61,404 bases of DNA from an uncultured Bacteroidota bacterium (GCA_964603995.1 CAZRXH010000006.1:1-61404), one strand, 5' to 3'; positions 4,962-53,965 are shown, numbered from the stretch's first letter. Notes: a model not told the origin generated them from the letters alone. Translations and numbers: made by a program.

Positions 4962-4994
4962 ATAAGAAGTAGCCCATTGAGTGAGGAGAGTTTT

Positions 4995-7409
4995 ATGAGT
5001 GAGAATGAATTTGATAAGGACGAACAGATAGTCATGGAAGATCCTGGAAAACTTTATAGCCAGGAGATACTTCCGATCATGCCGCTGAGGAATTCAGTGT
5101 TTTATCCGCGACAGATGATGCCGCTTTCAGTTGGCAGGAAGAGCACAATACAACTTGTCGACGAAGCATTTCGGGATGATGTTCCACTGCTCATCGTTGC
5201 CCAGAAGGACGCGAACATCGAACGCCCGACCTCCGAAGATATATACAAGACGGGGACCGTCGCGCGGATATTGAAGGTATACAATCTCCCTGACGGCTCG
5301 AAGAGTGTTTTTGTGCAAGGACTGTACAGAGCCCGGATATTCAACCTTGTCCAGCAGGATCCGTATCTGAAGGGTTTCGTTCAGAGGATCGAAGAAAAGA
5401 AGGTCGAGGGCATCGAGGTGGAGGCCCTGACCGCGACGATCAAGAACGGTTTTCGCAAGGCTGTCGAGCTTGCGCCGGACCTTACACCGGAACATCTCGG
5501 ACTGATCCTGAACACAGAGGATCCCGGTCATGTCGCTGACATGGCGATGTGGCTCATAAATATCCCGGTCAATGAAAAGCAGGAAGTTCTAGAAGAGCTT
5601 GATGTCCAGGAGAGACTGAAGAAATCGAATCTCTACCTTAGCAAGCTCGTTCAGCGACTCGAGCTCGGCAACAAGATACAGACTGAAGTGCAGGATGAAA
5701 TCAACAAGAGCCAGCGTGACTATTTCCTTCGCGAGCAGATGAAAGCTATCAAGCACGAGTTGGGCGAGGACGACGAAAACGTCGATATAAACGAGCTGCG
5801 GAAGAGGATCGAAGGGGGCAATTACCCCGAAGAGATGAAGAAGACCGCGTCGAAGGAACTCGACAGGCTGCAGAGAATGCATCCATCGAGCGCGGAATAC
5901 ACGGTCGCCCGCACGTACCTCGACTGGCTGCTCGATCTGCCGTGGAACACCTCCACTGAGGACAACCTGGACATAAAGGACGCGGAGAAGTCTCTCGGAA
6001 AGGATCACTACGGTCTGGAAAAAGTGAAGAAGAGAATTCTGGAGTATCTTGCCGTCCGCAAACTCAAGGCAGATATGCGCGGTCCGATACTCTGTTTTGT
6101 CGGTCCCCCCGGAGTCGGTAAAACGAGTCTCGGAAAGTCCATAGCGAAGGCTCTCGGAAGGAAATTCGTGCGGATATCGCTCGGCGGTGTGCACGACGAG
6201 GCGGAGATACGAGGGCACAGGCGAACATACATAGGTGCGCTGCCGGGAAGGATAATTCAGGGAATAAAGAAGGCTGGCTCGAACAATCCGGTGTTTATGC
6301 TGGATGAAGTGGACAAGATCGGGATGGATTTCCGCGGAGATCCGTCGAGCGCACTTCTGGAGGTACTCGATCCCGAACAGAATTTCTCTTTCAGCGATCA
6401 CTATCTTGAAATTCCCTTCGATCTCTCCAAGGTGATGTTTATCGCGACGGCTAACATGATGGAGCCGATTCCCCCGGCACTCAGAGATAGGATGGAAGTA
6501 ATCGAAATACCGAGCTACGTTGAAGACGAAAAGCTTCATATCGCGCGAAACTTCCTTGTCCCCAAGCAGGAAGCGGAGCATGGATTGAAAGAGAAGCAGA
6601 TCGAGTTCACGGACGAGGCCATCCATTTCCTGATCTCCGGATACACAAAGGAGGCAGGTGTGAGAAACCTCGAGAGGAAAATTGCAGATGTCTGTCGCGG
6701 CGTCGCTATGGAGGTGGCAGCCGGATCGAAGAAGAAGTTTGCAATCGACCGTGAAGCAGTCGTGAAGTATCTCGGAAATCAGAAGTTTTACCTGGAGGTC
6801 TCGGAGAGAATAAACAAACCCGGCATCGCAACGGGACTGGCCTGGACACCTGTCGGTGGAGACATATTGTTCATCGAAGCGACGAAAATGAAAGGCAAAG
6901 GGAATCTGATACTTACCGGGCAGCTCGGCGATGTAATGAAAGAGTCCGCGCAGGCTGCTCTAAGCTTCATCGGGGCGAATGCGGAAGCCCTGGGTATTGA
7001 GCCGGATTTCCGGGAGAAGTACGACATACATGTCCATGTCCCGGCGGGTGCTATACCGAAAGATGGTCCTTCTGCCGGAGTCACGATGCTGACCGCGCTT
7101 GTATCACTGCTAACCGGAAGGCTCGTAAGGAACGACCTCGCGATGACGGGAGAGATCACGCTGCGAGGAGCGGTCCTGCCGATCGGCGGAGTGAAAGAGA
7201 AAGTCATCGCTGCCGTGAGATCGGGCATAAAGACAGTGATTCTTCCGAAGAAGAACGAACTTGATCTCGACGAGGTTCCTTCGCATGTTCGTGATCAGCT
7301 GAAGTTTAAATTTGTGAGCGAAATGCCGGAAGTCCTCGGCTTTGCGCTTCGCCCCAACAAGAAGGATGATAAGCCACCCGTCCGCGCCGAAGCGCCGATA
7401 GCAAACTGA
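4995..7409 (+). CDS. lon: Lon protease (endopeptidase La), paralogue 1
   Basis: LON N-domain, Walker A GPPGVGKTS, LDEVDK, catalytic PKDGPSAG and IGGVKEK. Confidence 0.96.
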   Translation: MSENEFDKDEQIVMEDPGKLYSQEILPIMPLRNSVFYPRQMMPLSVGRKSTIQLVDEAFRDDVPLLIVAQKDANIERPTSEDIYKTGTVARILKVYNLPDGSKSVFVQGLYRARIFNLVQQDPYLKGFVQRIEEKKVEGIEVEALTATIKNGFRKAVELAPDLTPEHLGLILNTEDPGHVADMAMWLINIPVNEKQEVLEELDVQERLKKSNLYLSKLVQRLELGNKIQTEVQDEINKSQRDYFLREQMKAIKHELGEDDENVDINELRKRIEGGNYPEEMKKTASKELDRLQRMHPSSAEYTVARTYLDWLLDLPWNTSTEDNLDIKDAEKSLGKDHYGLEKVKKRILEYLAVRKLKADMRGPILCFVGPPGVGKTSLGKSIAKALGRKFVRISLGGVHDEAEIRGHRRTYIGALPGRIIQGIKKAGSNNPVFMLDEVDKIGMDFRGDPSSALLEVLDPEQNFSFSDHYLEIPFDLSKVMFIATANMMEPIPPALRDRMEVIEIPSYVEDEKLHIARNFLVPKQEAEHGLKEKQIEFTDEAIHFLISGYTKEAGVRNLERKIADVCRGVAMEVAAGSKKKFAIDREAVVKYLGNQKFYLEVSERINKPGIATGLAWTPVGGDILFIEATKMKGKGNLILTGQLGDVMKESAQAALSFIGANAEALGIEPDFREKYDIHVHVPAGAIPKDGPSAGVTMLTALVSLLTGRLVRNDLAMTGEITLRGAVLPIGGVKEKVIAAVRSGIKTVILPKKNELDLDEVPSHVRDQLKFKFVSEMPEVLGFALRPNKKDDKPPVRAEAPIAN

Positions 7410-32637: not shown

Positions 32638-32828
32638 ACCATACTCCTTGTTTAGAACTCGTCCAACGGACCCCGACTTGCGCCGGGACATGCCCTGAGG
32701 TCTCGCTTTTGGCGGGGCACTCGTGAGTTGATTTCTTTGTCCTGTTGAAAAGTTAGTCAGTAGAATCTGAAAGTTCAAAGCAGACGATTTGCTGCCTTGC
32801 TGCGATTGCCCTACTATCAAAGCTAACC

Positions 32829-32857
32829 TTGTTTAACCCTGAAGACTCTGCTATATT
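32829..32857 (+). promoter_or_regulatory. Sigma70-type promoter for the lon2-dnaX operon
   Basis: TTGTTT-N17-TATATT. Confidence 0.55.
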
Positions 32858-32902
32858 TTTCCACCAATTCCCAACTAAGTTCCTTTTCAACCGGAGATTA
32901 TT

Positions 32903-35311
32903 TTGAAGGATTTTGAAGAAATTGAAGAAGCAGGCGACATAAAGAAGATTGAGGACATACCGACCCGGCTCCCGGTTCTTCCTCTGCGGGATTCAATCAT
33001 TCTCCCGTATATGCTATTCCCGATTCTTGTGGGGCGCCAACAATCTGTGGAGGCTGTCGAACTTGCTGCGAAGTCGAATAAGTTCATTCTGCTGGTGGCC
33101 CAGAAGGACAGCACACTCGAGGATCCCACGAAAGACGAGTTGTACAAGGTCGGGACCGTCGCGCGAATCCTCCAGGTGCTGAAACTCCCTAACGGATTGC
33201 TGAAGGTGCTGGTTGACGGTGTCGCGCAGGCTTTCATAAAGAAGTACTACAATGAAAAAGGAATCCTCTATGCGGATTACGCACCGAATACGACTTCTGC
33301 GAAAAAGGAATCTTCGTTGGACGCTTACGTCAAACACGCGGGCCAATTGTTCAGGGATTACGTCCACAACAGCCGTGACATACCGCCGGAAACCATCATG
33401 TCCTTCGACAACATGGACGAGCCCGACCGGAAGCTGTATTACATACTCGCCAACATCGAGCTTTCGGTTCCGGACAAGATAGGAATTTTCAGTCTGAAGA
33501 GCCTGCAGGAGCAATACGAATCGCTGATAAAGATATTAATAGGCGAAATCAACATTCTGAAAATTGAGCAGGAGATTGATGACAAGGTCCAGGACAGCAT
33601 ACAGAAAAATCAGCGGAGATATTACCTGCAGGAACAGGTGAGGATAATGCAGGACGAGCTGGGCGACGAGAACCCGACCGGCGAGTCAGCACAGTTGAAA
33701 GAGAAAATTGAAAAAGCGAAAATGCCTGCCGCGGCAAAAACGAAGGCGCTGGACGAGCTGGACAAGCTGAAAAGGACACAGGCGTTTTCACCGGAAGCGA
33801 CCGTAATACGCAACTATCTCGACTGGCTCCTTGACGTTCCCTGGTACAAGAGGACCCGCGACAACCTGGATATCAAGCATGTCAGGGAAATTTTAGACGA
33901 GGATCACTACGGTCTCGACAAACCCAAAGAGAGAATCGTGGAGCAGATAGCGGTTCTGAATCTCGTGAAGGAAATGCGTTCGCAGATACTTTGCTTCGTC
34001 GGCCCACCTGGAGTAGGGAAGACGTCCCTGGCGAAATCCATAGCTCGGGCGCTTGGTAGAAATTTCGTCAGGATTTCTCTGGGTGGAATAAGGGACGAGG
34101 CAGAGATTAGAGGCCATCGTCGCACTTACGTCGGATCGCTGCCGGGTCGTATCCTCCAGGCGATGAAGAAGGCCGGGGTCGTGAATCCCGTCATGCTGCT
34201 CGATGAGGTCGATAAACTCGCATTCGATTTTCATGGCGATCCCGCCGCGGCACTGCTGGAAGTTCTCGACCCGGAACAGAATCATTCCTTCCAGGACCAT
34301 TATCTGGAAGTGGATTATGATCTTTCGAAGGTACTGTTCATCACCACGGCGAACGTTCGGGAAAACATACCGGCGCCGCTCGAAGACAGGATGGAGATCA
34401 TAGAGCTTCCTGGCTATCTCGACTATGACAAAATTGAAATTGCGAAACGGCATATCATACCGAAACAGCTCAGAGCTCATGGAATCGCCCCGGAATACGC
34501 CAGGTGCGACGATGCGGGTCTGCTGAAGATTATCCGTGAATATACTTGGGAAGCAGGCGTCAGGAACCTCGAACGTTCAATCGCAGGAGTGTGCCGAAAG
34601 ATCGCGAGAGAGATAGTCGTCCAGAAAAACGGGAAGAACGGGAAGATCAACCAGATCGAGGTGGACGAGAAAAGGATAGAGGAATTTCTCGGCGTTCCGA
34701 AATTTCATTCGAAGCAGATCATGAAGAAGAACCGTTTGGGTGTAGCTCTTGGGCTTGCGTGGACTAGTGGAGGTGGCGATATTCTAAACGTCGAAGCGAT
34801 ATTGATGGAAGGACCAGACAGGTTGCAGTTGACGGGACGTCTAGGAAATGTAATGCAGGAATCAGCACGCGCAGCACTCACATACGTCAGGGCAAATGCT
34901 GCACGGTTCGGCATCCCGAAGAATTTTCATAAGGGAAAAGAGATCCACATACACGTCCCGGAAGGAGCGACTCCCAAAGACGGTCCCTCCGCGGGGCTGA
35001 CGATGTCCATCGCACTCATCTCCGCAGCCGGCAAGAAACCCGTTAGAACAGATGTAGCCATGACCGGTGAGATCAACCTGAACGGCGAAGTCCTGCCGAT
35101 CGGCGGCTTGATGGAGAAGATGCTTGCGGCCAAGAGATATGGAATCAAGAAGGTGCTTATTCCGAAAGACAACTTGAAAGACTTGAGCGAGATTCCGGAA
35201 AAGTTGAAGGAAGGAATAACCGTAGTGCCGATAGAAAAAATTGAAGACGCGGTCAGCCATGTCTTCGATGACAAGTCGAAAGGCAGTAAGTCCGCACGGA
35301 AAAAGAGATGA
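32903..35311 (+). CDS. lon: Lon protease, paralogue 2
   Basis: LPVLPLRD, GPPGVGKTS, PKDGPSAG, IGGLMEK; TTG start after GGAG. Confidence 0.95.
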   Translation: MKDFEEIEEAGDIKKIEDIPTRLPVLPLRDSIILPYMLFPILVGRQQSVEAVELAAKSNKFILLVAQKDSTLEDPTKDELYKVGTVARILQVLKLPNGLLKVLVDGVAQAFIKKYYNEKGILYADYAPNTTSAKKESSLDAYVKHAGQLFRDYVHNSRDIPPETIMSFDNMDEPDRKLYYILANIELSVPDKIGIFSLKSLQEQYESLIKILIGEINILKIEQEIDDKVQDSIQKNQRRYYLQEQVRIMQDELGDENPTGESAQLKEKIEKAKMPAAAKTKALDELDKLKRTQAFSPEATVIRNYLDWLLDVPWYKRTRDNLDIKHVREILDEDHYGLDKPKERIVEQIAVLNLVKEMRSQILCFVGPPGVGKTSLAKSIARALGRNFVRISLGGIRDEAEIRGHRRTYVGSLPGRILQAMKKAGVVNPVMLLDEVDKLAFDFHGDPAAALLEVLDPEQNHSFQDHYLEVDYDLSKVLFITTANVRENIPAPLEDRMEIIELPGYLDYDKIEIAKRHIIPKQLRAHGIAPEYARCDDAGLLKIIREYTWEAGVRNLERSIAGVCRKIAREIVVQKNGKNGKINQIEVDEKRIEEFLGVPKFHSKQIMKKNRLGVALGLAWTSGGGDILNVEAILMEGPDRLQLTGRLGNVMQESARAALTYVRANAARFGIPKNFHKGKEIHIHVPEGATPKDGPSAGLTMSIALISAAGKKPVRTDVAMTGEINLNGEVLPIGGLMEKMLAAKRYGIKKVLIPKDNLKDLSEIPEKLKEGITVVPIEKIEDAVSHVFDDKSKGSKSARKKR

Positions 35312-35388
35312 GCTATCTCGTAACCGCGCGCAAATGGCTCCCGATGTCTGTGATTATTAAGATGAAGAAGAAGGTGAGCATACGATGA
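35308..35388 (+). other. Duplicated dnaX 5' end forming a 26-codon mini-ORF (MSYLVTARKWLPMSVIIKMKKKVSIR)
   Basis: First 39 nt match the dnaX start at 35991 (34/39). Its ATG overlaps the lon stop and its TGA overlaps the DUF433 ATG. Confidence 0.85.
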
Positions 35389-35612
35389 AGGAATTGAGTG
35401 AGCGCATTGTGATTGACCCCGCGATTCGTTTCGGCAAGCCCATCATTAAGGGAACTAGAGTTCCCGTCGAAGTAATTCTTGGCCGCCTTGCAGCAGGATT
35501 ATCGTACGAAGAGGTGATGAAGGAGTATGATGTCACAAGAGAGGACATCCTTGCCGTGTTGCTTTATGCTTCGCAATATTTGTCCCACGAAGAAGTTGCG
35601 TCTGTAAAATGA
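35385..35612 (+). CDS. DUF433 antitoxin (VapB45-like)
   Basis: RIVIDPAIRFGKPIIKGTRVPV...EDILAVLLYA. Confidence 0.92.
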   Translation: MKELSERIVIDPAIRFGKPIIKGTRVPVEVILGRLAAGLSYEEVMKEYDVTREDILAVLLYASQYLSHEEVASVK

Positions 35613-35613
35613 T

Positions 35614-35973
35614 ATGGCGGTTTTTCTTGTTGATGAAGACTTGCCACGTTCAACCGTTTCATTGCTGAAGAAACTCAATATTGAGAGTATCGATGTCCGA
35701 GATTGCGGCTTGCGTGGAAGGTCCGATGAAGAGATATATGAATTTGCCGTCGAACACAAAATGGCTATTCTCACTGCAGACAGAGGATTTGGAAACATCC
35801 ATCGTTTCTCGCTGGGTTCACACAGCGGAATTGTTATTCTGAAATTTTCAAATGAGATATCATCAGCAGATTTTGACAATTTCGTTCTTCATAATTTGAG
35901 CAGAGCGGACTTGGGTGGAATTACGGGTTGTGTCGTAATTGTTGAAGATGATAAGATAAGAATTAGAAAATAG
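35614..35973 (+). CDS. DUF5615 PIN-like toxin (VapC45-like)
   Basis: FLVDEDLP, G.SDEEI, ILTADRGF, HSGIVIL; 1 nt after DUF433. Confidence 0.88.
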   Translation: MAVFLVDEDLPRSTVSLLKKLNIESIDVRDCGLRGRSDEEIYEFAVEHKMAILTADRGFGNIHRFSLGSHSGIVILKFSNEISSADFDNFVLHNLSRADLGGITGCVVIVEDDKIRIRK

Positions 35974-35990
35974 TGACGAGAATAATTTAG

Positions 35991-37658
35991 ATGTCCTATT
36001 TGGTAACCGCGCGCAAATGGCGCCCGATGCGTTTTGACGAAGTGACTGCGCAGGAACACGTCACCGTCACGATGAAGAACGCGATCATCCGCAACCGCAT
36101 CGCTCACGCCTACCTCTTCAGCGGGCCGAGTGGTGTCGGCAAGACTACAACGGCTCGCATTTTTGCGAAAGCGATCAACTGCCGAAATGTCGTAGAAGGT
36201 GAGCCGTGCAACAAATGTGACGTCTGCGGAGAGATAACCGAGGGAAGAAGCCTGGACGTAATCGAAATCGACGGCGCTTCCAACAGGGGCATCGATGAGA
36301 TCCGGGACTTGCGTGAGTCGGTTCGCTACTCTCCATCGCGACTGAAATATAAGGTCTACATAATAGACGAAGTTCATATGCTCACCAAGGAGGCATTCAA
36401 CGCGCTCCTGAAGACTCTCGAGGAACCGCCCGAGTACGCGGTATTTGTGCTGGCGACAACCGAACCTCACAAGGTGATTCCCACTATTCTCACCCGGTGT
36501 CAGAGATTCGATTTCAAAAGGATCGAGGTAGAGAAAATAATAGAGCGACTTCGCTTCATAGCGGAGGAGGAGAAGATTGCGGTCGATGAGGAATCATTTG
36601 TAACCATTGCCAAGAAGGGCGATGGTTCAATGAGGGACGCGCTCAGTATATTTGATCAGGTTGCGGCGTTCTGCGGAAATGAGATTAAGCATGATGTCGT
36701 CGTTGAAGCTCTCAGCCTTGTGGATAGTGAGTTTTTCTTCAAGACTACTGAGCTAATAGAAAAAAATGATTCGAAAGGTGCCGTTGAACTTGCGTCTCAG
36801 ATAATTGCCCGCGGTTATGATTCCGTCGATTTTTTGGAAGGGTTATCGGAGCACGTAAGAAACTTGCTTATCGCCTCAACCACGGGGAAAGCCGATCTCA
36901 TCGAGGCATCCGAAGACTACAGGAAGCGATATCTCGATGCGGCTGCCAGGTTCGACAAGCTCGACCTGCTCCGAATGCTGAAGAGTATCAGTGAAGCGAT
37001 TCAGCAGATTAAATACGTGTCACAGCCGAGAATCAAGCTGGAAATGACTTTGCTGCAGTTGGCCAACATGGAACGCTCCGTTAAGCTGCGCGACCTTCTT
37101 CAGCAGGTGGAGGAGCTAAAAAAAAACTTAACTAGCCACAGGGCCTCACTCGGGGAGGTGCAGGTACCCCGTCCGGCCTCAGGGGCGGTGTCGTCAGGCT
37201 CTTCATTTAAAGAGAGCCGTCCATCGTATGCAGAAAGAAAAGTGCCTCCTGTCGCTGCACCGAGCGGTCCCGTCTCGCGCCCCACGGCAAGAAGCACTGA
37301 GGAAGGACCATCTCATGCTGCCAGTCAGACGTCTTTCCAGGAAATTAATGTGCGCTGGGATGAATTCCTCTTGGCTGTGCGCAAAGAGAGAATCGGGGTT
37401 TGGACGCAGCTTGTGAACCTGAAACCGCTTGGGGTGAAGAACGGCTGGCTGATTCTCGGGGCGCCGAACGAAGTTGTAATAGGAATGACGAAGCCTTACA
37501 AGAGTTACATACAGGATGCTATCCTGAGGACGCTGGGGGCACGCGTGGCGATCGACTTCACTATTGTCGAAAGCAAACAGCCCGTTGATAATGATGACAA
37601 CGATCCGATTATAAAATATCTGAAGGACGAATTCGGTGCTGAACCACTTGAATCATAA
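35991..37658 (+). CDS. dnaX: DNA polymerase III subunit gamma/tau
   Basis: ARKWRP, GPSGVGKTT, C-x-PCNKCDVC zinc module, EIDGASNRGID, IIDEVHML, TRCQ. Confidence 0.97.
   Translation: MSYLVTARKWRPMRFDEVTAQEHVTVTMKNAIIRNRIAHAYLFSGPSGVGKTTTARIFAKAINCRNVVEGEPCNKCDVCGEITEGRSLDVIEIDGASNRGIDEIRDLRESVRYSPSRLKYKVYIIDEVHMLTKEAFNALLKTLEEPPEYAVFVLATTEPHKVIPTILTRCQRFDFKRIEVEKIIERLRFIAEEEKIAVDEESFVTIAKKGDGSMRDALSIFDQVAAFCGNEIKHDVVVEALSLVDSEFFFKTTELIEKNDSKGAVELASQIIARGYDSVDFLEGLSEHVRNLLIASTTGKADLIEASEDYRKRYLDAAARFDKLDLLRMLKSISEAIQQIKYVSQPRIKLEMTLLQLANMERSVKLRDLLQQVEELKKNLTSHRASLGEVQVPRPASGAVSSGSSFKESRPSYAERKVPPVAAPSGPVSRPTARSTEEGPSHAASQTSFQEINVRWDEFLLAVRKERIGVWTQLVNLKPLGVKNGWLILGAPNEVVIGMTKPYKSYIQDAILRTLGARVAIDFTIVESKQPVDNDDNDPIIKYLKDEFGAEPLES
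37109..37135 (+). promoter_or_regulatory. dnaX A9 slippage/frameshift site
   Basis: GGAGGAG-CT-A9-CTTAACTAG; stops immediately in both the +1 (TAA 37129) and -1 (TAG 37133) frames. Confidence 0.75.
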
Positions 37659-53531: not shown

Positions 53532-53603
<72 letters not shown>

Positions 53604-53608
53604 CGTAG

Positions 53609-53872
53609 ATGAATTTCTTTGTGTATGTTCTGAGGAGTCTGACAAAGGAAAGGTATTATGTCGGGCAGACTGATGATCTTTCGGACAGACTCAGGAGACA
53701 TAACGGAGGAAGAGTTAAATCGACAAAGGCTTACAGGCCATGGTCGATAGCGTACTTTGAGAAATATGAGACACGAGCGGAAGCTGTGAGGCGAGAACGA
53801 GAGTTGAAGAACCTCAAGGGGACCGCTAAGTTTCTGAAGCTGATAGGCGTAGTCCCGACCTTGTCGGGATAA
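53609..53872 (+). CDS. Stand-alone GIY-YIG endonuclease (87 aa)
   Basis: FVYVL, YYVGQT, RLRRHN, EA..RE..LK; starts 5 nt after the tRNA and its stop lies inside the pseudo-tRNA. Confidence 0.92.
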   Translation: MNFFVYVLRSLTKERYYVGQTDDLSDRLRRHNGGRVKSTKAYRPWSIAYFEKYETRAEAVRRERELKNLKGTAKFLKLIGVVPTLSG

Positions 53873-53965
53873 GGCATCCCGGCTCAATTGTATTGAGTCG
53901 GGACACTCGTAGGTTCTCGCAAAGCGATCCCTTCGGGAGAATCCTGCCGCCCCAGCGTAGATGAA
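53846..53965 (+). pseudogene. Degenerate tRNA-Gln copy invaded by palindromes
   Basis: Retains GGCGTAG, TAAGGCA, CACTCGTAGGTTC and 27 nt identical to 53587-53613, in tRNA order, separated by hairpins. Confidence 0.9.

Follow-up and report, generated by a model that had tools for sequence, protein, structure and literature searches.

Why should an essential gene begin twice? In a 61,404-nt stretch of DNA from an uncultured Bacteroidota bacterium (GCA_964603995.1 CAZRXH010000006.1:1-61404; hereafter 'the window', to whose positions all coordinates refer), the first 13 codons of dnaX, the gene for DNA polymerase III gamma/tau, are present in two copies, and between the copies lie two small genes predicted to encode a toxin-antitoxin pair. 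The upstream copy sits on the stop codon of lon, the gene for an ATP-dependent protease. The original prediction, made from this sequence alone, interpreted the arrangement as a toxin-antitoxin cassette integrated at the 5′ end of dnaX, with the old start kept as a translational coupler. As explained below, our analysis agrees with a foreign toxin-antitoxin cassette between two dnaX starts, one of them a relic joined to the lon stop, but not with two accompanying suggestions, namely that the toxin may be attenuated and that co-expression with Lon is of note, this protease being known to degrade antitoxins. Taken as a whole, the locus is in our judgement probably the product of a foreign toxin-antitoxin insertion that duplicated the dnaX 5′ end, with the inserted genes most likely co-transcribed with their neighbours.

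Two copies of the dnaX start around an AT-rich insert

On the + strand, the sequence and the listing of open reading frames (ORFs) give the order lon, a 26-codon mini-ORF, a 75-aa ORF, a 119-aa ORF and dnaX (Table 1), and the consecutive frames are separated by −4 (ATGA), −4 (ATGA), +1 and +17 nt. A repeat finder returned a single direct-repeat family, whose two 41-nt copies are 88% identical, are spaced by 683 nt and flank a 644-bp AT-rich insert. The repeat takes in two common bases (AG) 5′ of each ATG; counted from the ATG, 34 of 39 bases agree, with differences at positions 4, 5, 10, 12 and 32. A 19-nt core is identical in the two copies (35320-35338 and 36003-36021), just where it had been predicted, and a search of the whole window found it nowhere else. 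Even with up to 3 mismatches there was no third core site in the window, and shuffled sequences (n = 100) gave an expectation of 0.01 sites, with no shuffle containing two matches. Just one other short-range repeat of at least 24 nt is present in the whole window, and it is unrelated to the dnaX repeat.

Table 1. Features of the lon-dnaX locus, in window positions
Feature	Position	Strand	Evidence or remark
lon (ATP-dependent protease La), 802 aa	32903..35311	+	Pfam Lon_C 2.7e-83, LON_substr_bdg, AAA, Lon_lid
Left repeat copy, judged a relic of dnaX codons 1-13	35306..35346	+	12/13 residues kept, Arg11 to Leu
26-codon mini-ORF	35308..35388	+	ATG overlaps lon stop, TGA overlaps antitoxin ATG; no Pfam family
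AT-rich cassette leader, 38 nt	35347..35384	+	Shine-Dalgarno-like AAGGTG, ends 8 nt 5′ of antitoxin ATG
DUF433 (COG2442) predicted antitoxin gene, 75 aa	35385..35612	+	Pfam PF04255 8.4e-23
PIN-like predicted toxin gene (DUF5615 / PIN_10, Mut7-C group), 119 aa	35614..35973	+	PF18480 2.2e-21, PF18478 6.1e-06
Spacer, 17 nt, toxin stop (TAG) to working dnaX ATG	35974..35990	+	Sequence
Right repeat copy, judged the working dnaX start	35989..36029	+	Repeat finder
dnaX (DNA polymerase III gamma/tau), 555 aa, intact	35991..37658	+	Pfam DNA_pol3_delta2 4.2e-47 and others

A repeated start could in principle be an assembly artefact, in which two strain variants were chimerically joined through their common dnaX start, and the window does probably come from an assembled environmental genome, its relatives being named as metagenome-assembled genomes (MAGs). 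However, a join through the repeat would yield one hybrid start rather than two that enclose an insert, identity between the copies is unbroken over 19 nt at most, and the sequence beyond the junction at 35346/35347 has no homology to dnaX from codon 14 onward. An artefact is thus extremely improbable.

The two copies differ in their apparent status. Among 51 close dnaX relatives (62-86% identity), Arg11 of DnaX is kept in all 48 that have a full N-terminus. The window's dnaX also has Arg there (CGC), while the upstream copy has Leu (CTC). Since a residue that is invariant in close relatives is altered in the upstream copy, this copy is best regarded as a relic, not as a start under DnaX constraint, and the downstream copy as the head of the working gene. 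Consistent with this assignment, the product of the downstream gene is completely covered (100%) in alignments with relatives that are 72-86% identical, and past codon 13 the relic reads into unrelated AT-rich sequence. As the ORF listing confirms, the relic start overlaps the lon stop (TGA, 35309-35311) and opens a mini-ORF that ends on the antitoxin start, as had been predicted; its 13 relic codons are joined in frame to 13 codons of the antitoxin 5′ leader. The duplication ends exactly with the codon for Met13 of DnaX (35344-35346 and 36027-36029). In three relatives (P0041, P0044 and P0048) the annotated DnaX start is Met13, which may be usable as an alternative start.

The remaining four differences between the copies are synonymous (Ser AGC/TCC and Leu CTC/TTG, relic/working dnaX). 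The original prediction had emphasized these, and the Arg/Leu change was displayed there but passed without comment. All four are confined to codons 2-4; over the nine codons that follow, a single base differs. The divergence is therefore a mosaic: codons 2 and 4 each differ at two bases, and the next seven degenerate codons carry no synonymous change, even though their synonymous sites vary freely among other lineages. Codons 2-4 hold about one fifth of the synonymous opportunities, so by our own estimate two hits there and none elsewhere have a probability of ~0.04, which the double hits lower further.

This mosaic bears on how the duplication arose. Three candidate routes would give the observed anatomy: crossover of the attachment-site (att) or short-homology type with a circle whose sequence mimics the dnaX start, recombination with DNA of a related lineage, and a widely staggered break that duplicated 39-41 nt. 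The mosaic favours att-type or short-homology crossover, related-lineage recombination or a gene-conversion tract over plain drift after staggered-break duplication. With a staggered break, the repeat would be a true target-site duplication of native dnaX, and the five differences would have arisen later: the relic would have changed freely, and the working copy would have acquired synonymous changes that may have been favoured because they suit initiation in its new upstream context. The length of the repeat and the lack of mobility genes do match the 'long target duplication' cases, as described with repeats of at least 46 bp (PMC2853133), and the relic carries its one change at an otherwise invariant residue. 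Moreover, residue 2 is Ser, Thr or Asn in 48/48 close relatives, and the path from AGC through ACC to TCC would be easy once the overlap with lon was gone. On the other hand, two double-hit codons beside seven unchanged degenerate codons are unlikely under uniform drift (the ~0.04 given above), and positive selection or a very uneven rate would be needed. We consider a staggered break unlikely.

Two further properties of the repeat were of little help. We asked whether residue 2 of DnaX could indicate an ATGA overlap with lon and rejected the idea: Ser, Thr or Asn is found there not only in the close relatives but also in 60 of 68 distant relatives, some of which have no overlap, so the residue says little about it. 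The codons of the two left arms are too few to weigh; CTC and AGC are the commoner host codons, and TTG accounts for 14% of the Leu codons in the host versus 40% in the cassette (n = 20).

The insert is foreign in composition. Compared with 39 other genes of the window, which served as the host reference (mean GC 0.511, standard deviation 0.018; mean GC at third codon positions, GC3, 0.605, standard deviation 0.029), the PIN-like gene has a GC content of 0.403 (z −5.9) and a GC3 of 0.361 (z −8.3), and the GC3 of the DUF433 gene is 0.507 (z −3.35). An AT content as high as that of the PIN gene is reached by just 0.1% of 360-bp windows. We saw no integrase, transposase or recombinase on either strand of the cassette, whose antisense ORFs gave no Pfam match, or among 54 other scanned ORFs of the 61-kb window. 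Nor did the cassette boundaries (35974-35990 included) show terminal inverted repeats or inverted-repeat arms resembling attC. Pfam, GC/GC3 and ORF scans thus agree with the earlier description of the insert as a DUF433 gene and an AT-richer PIN-like gene with no integrase.

These features have to be set against site-specific integration, in which a non-autonomous 683-bp element, with an attachment site (attP) mimicking the dnaX start, would have entered by a crossover in the 19-nt core, catalysed by a trans-acting recombinase. In that case the element would have supplied dnaX with its new 5′ arm and the old arm would be left at the outer edge, as in islands that target dusA. An imperfect repeat with an identical core is what such a crossover would leave, and all synonymous differences fall in the 12 nt to the left of the core. 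It is thus plausible, as the original prediction proposed, that the cassette brought the working dnaX start by an exchange of the attL/attR type, since the synonymous differences fit a crossover inside the repeat. The same layout, with 21-bp semi-conserved attL/attR sequences, is described for dusA islands (PMC4482086), and a second small insert in the window is likewise flanked by a duplicated target end, in that case the 3′ end of tRNA-Gln. However, no integrase is present in the cassette, in the window or in 136 ORFs upstream of dnaX in other genomes, the insert ends lack inverted repeats, cargo flanked by a duplicated dnaX start was seen at none of 80 distant dnaX loci (see below), and 19 identical bases among 39 with 5 differences are not in themselves significant. 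Site-specific integration therefore strikes us as a doubtful account of the locus.

The second insert deserves a brief description. The tRNA-Gln gene (53532-53604) is followed by an 87-aa GIY-YIG gene (53609-53872, PF01541 3.4e-17), after which a perfect 27-nt copy (53939-53965) of positions 53587-53613 is found, comprising the last 18 nt of the tRNA and 9 nt downstream. The ATG of the GIY-YIG ORF falls within the left copy. The genome represented by the window thus has two inserts of one unit each, both with a target duplication and no recombinase.

A predicted VapBC-type pair and its expression

What was inserted can be predicted from the families of the two genes. Both are small and lie in the same orientation with a 1-nt gap. 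The DUF433 match in the first covers residues 8-62 (PF04255); the protein also matches the DUF433 part of PDB entry 5af3, 'VAPBC49' (6.8e-05), and belongs to a family with 9588 representatives at E ≤ 0.001. The second protein matches DUF5615 and also PF18478 (PIN_10), the latter with 26.7 bits, above the cut-off of 26.2. COG4634 and PIN_10 have been assigned to the Mut7-C group of PIN-like nucleases, and DUF433-PIN_10 has been named as a toxin-antitoxin system (PMC5499597). The one characterized DUF433-type pair is VapBC10, a PIN-COG2442 pair of Synechocystis PCC 6803, which is reported to be co-transcribed, toxic in E. coli and neutralized via complex formation (PMC3834315). We therefore infer that the insert is a type II toxin-antitoxin module of the VapBC kind, with predicted toxin and antitoxin activity.

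The original prediction pointed to the sequence TADRGF (residues 54-59 of the PIN-like protein), where T-x-D-x-D-F is usual, and supposed that the toxin might be attenuated. An alignment of 24 subfamily sequences, including that of the window, with an ordinary DUF5615 protein (from distant locus L019) as outgroup, leads to a different conclusion. All 24 sequences read T/S-[AG]-D-x-G-[FI], with Gly at position 58, whereas the outgroup reads T-Y-D-A-D-F, with Asp at the position of the subfamily Gly. Since Gly in place of the second Asp is standard in this subfamily, TADRGF is a feature that selection has conserved throughout a subclade and no lesion of the window's copy. D30, D38 and D56 are invariant in the subfamily, and an N-terminal D-E-D (D7/E8/D9) is found wherever the N-terminus exists. 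Two near homologues, P0124 (103 aa) and P0125 (99 aa), are called N-terminally short, without the V-D-E-D motif, which suggests toxin decay in some lineages.

The second suggestion, that co-expression with Lon matters because this protease degrades antitoxins, also loses its appeal. The VapBC10 antitoxin is cleaved by ClpXP2s 'rather than Lons', according to the published account (PMC3834315), so the position of the cassette beside lon is better explained by the location of dnaX than by a functional tie to Lon. The window encodes a second full-length Lon paralogue (4977-7409), 25 kb upstream and 47% identical to the dnaX-linked Lon.

How would such a cassette be expressed? No sigma-70-type promoter was reported on the + strand of 35000-36000, and no TAnnTTTG (Bacteroidota-type) motif was present in 32700-36100, where a relaxed scan gave 8-9 of 12 matches at best. 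Upstream of the antitoxin there are weak matches only (8/12), and a weak promoter-like TTGAAG-16-TAGAAA lies at 35942-35969. One weak terminator-like hairpin was found within the PIN gene, at the frequency expected from shuffling. Because the genes are tightly packed, with 38 nt between the relic and the antitoxin ATG, and no convincing promoter or terminator was seen, the module is most likely transcribed with lon and dnaX.

The relic could have a role in translation. With its ATG on the lon stop and the stop of its mini-ORF on the antitoxin ATG, it has the geometry of termination-reinitiation, and its spacing fits that of a translational coupler. If the mini-ORF is translated, ribosomes leaving lon may restart on the relic and again on the antitoxin. 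The dnaX start lies 17 nt past the toxin stop, without a clear ribosome-binding site, and one may speculate that dnaX translation depends partly on ribosomes that finish the toxin gene.

The lon-dnaX junction in relatives and a proposed history of the insertion

If the cassette was inserted, lon and dnaX should be neighbours in lineages without it. We used two sets of loci: the close relatives introduced above, in which adjacency was judged indirectly, from equal lengths of the longest contig in the DnaX and Lon protein tables, and 80 distant loci from a search of genome contigs that was dominated by a universally conserved peptide pattern, with 60% identity at best and no Kryptoniota locus among them. 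The named relatives of both DnaX and Lon are MAGs of Candidatus Kryptoniota and 'Bacteroidetes/Bacteroidota bacterium', and on this sequence evidence the organism is related to Candidatus Kryptoniota. The Lon relatives include full-length proteins (802-804 aa) that are 85-89% identical to the dnaX-linked Lon of the window.

The original prediction would have lost its basis if lon were never beside dnaX in relatives; in fact it is in some distant ones, and it appears to be in close ones. Directly upstream of dnaX, on the same strand, lon is found in 6/80 distant loci (L002, L003, L004, L006, L007 and L008), whose Lons are 59-65% identical to that of the window. Among the close relatives, 17/51 appear to have Lon on a longest contig of the same size as that of dnaX, and six of these shared contigs are no longer than 30 kb (8444, 12553, 14874, 18347, 22860 and 28052 bp). 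This is indirect evidence, but such sharing would be difficult to account for if the two genes were not adjacent throughout the close clade.

The content of the junction varies. In L002, the two genes are separated by a 45-nt spacer. Four Ignavibacteria-like loci (L004 5392-5901, L006 5505-5993, L007 1645-2154 and L008 5480-5968) have a conserved GAF-domain gene of ~165 aa between lon and dnaX. The sixth (L003 5354-5990, a 'Bacteroidetes bacterium' MAG) has a DUF6922 ORF (2.8e-16) that starts on the lon stop (ATGA). Broken frames come after it, one of which matches the AbiEii toxin N-terminus below the threshold (E 0.023), and the whole may be a decayed toxin-antitoxin module. The differing GAF, DUF6922 or spacer content means that the lon-dnaX junction holds different content in different lineages.

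Toxin-antitoxin-like genes also occur near dnaX elsewhere. In a Bacteroidales MAG (L047 5243-5995), a 100-aa ORF that matches ribbon-helix-helix families only weakly overlaps a PIN_3 gene (3.9e-16), which runs on the same strand as dnaX and stops 3 nt short of its ATG; the dnaX start is not duplicated there. Together with the window and L003, toxin-antitoxin-like genes thus abut the dnaX start on the same strand in 3/81 sources, a small count that hints at the dnaX start being a favoured niche for such genes. A Sunxiuqinia MAG (L019 4654-5111) has, ~0.9 kb upstream of dnaX, a DUF433 gene of canonical type and a DUF5615 gene that is truncated (78 aa, T-Y-D-A-D-F), with a glutathione-peroxidase gene on the opposite strand between this pair and dnaX; the proximity is probably a coincidence.

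The cassette itself is distributed patchily. We detected 24 toxin homologues, the nearest of which are 76% (P0122), 67% (P0123) and 67% (P0124) identical. A PIN homologue is on a contig of the same size as that of dnaX in only two close relatives. One of these, P0122 with the dnaX of P0045 (73%), matches at 4529109 bp, which is a whole genome and thus uninformative on position. The other, P0124, appears from the size match to share an 8444-bp contig with both dnaX (P0006, 81%) and Lon (P0151, 85%), and is probably at or near the same lon-dnaX junction; with its first ~16 residues missing, and the V-D-E-D motif among them, it may be decaying. A third homologue, P0133 (49%), shares a size of 6638 bp with the dnaX and Lon of a distant lineage, but the three records come from differing sources and the match may be a coincidence. 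At least 15 other contigs apparently shared by lon and dnaX, as judged by size, have no PIN match. This pattern fits gain in some lineages, loss in many, or both.

Many losses are what would follow if the cassette were an old, inherited element of the operon, which entered before the Kryptoniota split, with the relic either held similar to dnaX by gene conversion or maintained by selection as a leader ORF through which lon, antitoxin, toxin and dnaX are coupled. In agreement with an early entry, PIN homologues that are 76% and 67% identical occur where dnaX is 73% and 81% identical, one of them apparently on the 8444-bp contig. The 6638-bp match would agree as well, and both ATGA overlaps are intact. 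Against long residence, the toxin GC3 is still 0.36 versus a host mean of 0.60. Furthermore, most shared contigs lack the PIN match, the 6638-bp agreement may be due to chance, a mini-ORF with this frame and stop would arise at random in roughly one case in five, and RNA folding revealed no structure. We therefore think it rather improbable that the cassette is ancestral to the clade.

Insertion with target duplication is, by contrast, well supported by the sequence, and the history we favour would run as follows. In the ancestral state, lon and dnaX would have been neighbours, probably overlapping as ATGA. A foreign 644-bp module would then have been inserted 39 nt into dnaX, with the first 13 codons duplicated, so that the downstream copy heads the intact essential gene and the upstream relic stays on the lon stop, fused in frame to the antitoxin leader. 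The event would have been recombinational rather than integrase-driven. The likeliest route may be that DNA from a related lineage, with the cassette already ahead of dnaX, recombined within dnaX, through one homologous joint in dnaX and one illegitimate or short-homology joint at codon 13.

Several observations weigh against parts of this account. The insertion is proposed from the window's own junction, and the neighbourhood in close relatives is judged from contig matching, which is indirect. At the closest distant loci (L001 and L005, 57-60% identity, high GC), the 6 kb upstream of dnaX contain other genes but not lon, and a second dnaX N-terminal motif occurs in 0/80 distant loci, so these provide no parallel event. 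(No integrase or transposase was found there either, among the 136 ORFs within 1.5 kb upstream of dnaX.) If two initially identical copies had simply decayed, a 4:1 ratio of synonymous to non-synonymous differences would be only mildly improbable (p ~0.1-0.2, our own estimate). If P0124 is at the same site, the insertion would be old; a neutral relic would then be unlikely to be still 34/39 identical, which would point to selection or gene conversion. With regard to expression, the promoter scans covered sigma-70 and Bacteroidota-type motifs only, and the phylum's own promoter type may differ. As for coupling, the antitoxin has its own Shine-Dalgarno-like AAGGTG eight bases upstream, the probability that the frame stays open for 13 more codons and then stops in the right register is roughly 0.18 (0.53 × one third), and RNA folds at the antitoxin and dnaX starts are ordinary (z −0.08 and +0.69), with no structure that hides a start.

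Elements of the alternatives can also be joined. The cassette might be a 683-bp integrase-less mobile toxin-antitoxin element that homes to the dnaX start and carries its own replacement start region. It would move between Kryptoniota lineages at the 19-nt core, by short-homology or trans-acting recombination, and leave precisely via the repeats, and the relic would be a working leader ORF that couples translation of Lon, antitoxin, toxin and DnaX, the clamp-loader subunit. We regard this combination as a long shot. If it were true, coupled translation would make the cassette hard to lose without harming replication.

Whatever the route, the locus could be informative beyond this organism. The movement of chromosomal toxin-antitoxin pairs without mobility genes is poorly documented, and the scar is unusually legible here: the duplicated 13 codons of an essential gene mark both the position of the joint and the way in which the gene stayed whole. 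An empty site, if found in relatives, could show whether the 'long target duplication' route, which has been proposed for restriction-modification units, also underlies the spread of toxin-antitoxin pairs, and whether the lon-dnaX position gives the cassette free expression and protection from deletion.

Comparison with known systems

Taken singly, the toxin-antitoxin family and the style of insertion at this locus are both known. A full-text literature search, limited to direct-repeat-flanked toxin-antitoxin genes with duplication, brought up no report of such a pair whose insertion had duplicated a gene start. As far as that one search goes, the combination of a toxin-antitoxin pair, a 13-codon duplication of an essential gene start and a relic in a bridging mini-ORF has not been described.

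Integron gene cassettes with toxin-antitoxin pairs offer one comparison, as they are small, promoterless and expressed from an upstream promoter. Unlike these, the window unit has no attC-like inverted repeat at the cassette end, and the window contains no intI.

PIN-COG2442 VapBC pairs such as VapBC10 have the same two domains in the same order as the window pair, whose genes are likewise small, adjacent and co-oriented. VapBC10 is described as having its own promoter, activated by the antitoxin (PMC3834315), whereas the window cassette has 38 nt between relic and antitoxin ATG and no evident promoter. The window toxin further differs in belonging to the subclade with Gly at the usual second Asp of T-x-D-x-D-F, a property known here from sequence alone.

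The layout of the two 5′ ends resembles that of dusA islands, in which, as described by Farrugia et al. (2015, PMC4482086), the target gene receives a new 5′ end from the element and its old one stays behind at the outer boundary; the direct repeats are imperfect, with a ~21-bp semi-conserved core. The window unit shares the imperfect direct repeats with a conserved core (19 nt in 41 nt). However, the islands are reported to be tens of kilobases long, with their own integrase and with excision demonstrated by polymerase chain reaction (PMC4482086), whereas the window unit has 683 bp and no integrase, and is known from its sequence.

The outcome matches that of insertion with long target duplication, described by Furuta, Abe and Kobayashi (2010, PMC2853133) for restriction-modification units with deviant GC, repeats of at least 46 bp and no mobility genes; the repeats may overlap gene ends. 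In the published cases the cargo is restriction-modification, genomes with the empty site were compared and the repeats are 96-100% identical (PMC2853133), whereas in the window the cargo is a toxin-antitoxin pair, an 88% mosaic repeat lies at the 5′ end of an essential gene, and the insertion is proposed from the occupied site. With its different cargo, the window unit would not be a member of this class as defined. It nevertheless appears to behave like one, since it is an addiction-type unit of deviant GC, with no mobility gene, enclosed by a direct repeat of over 30 bp that derives from its target.

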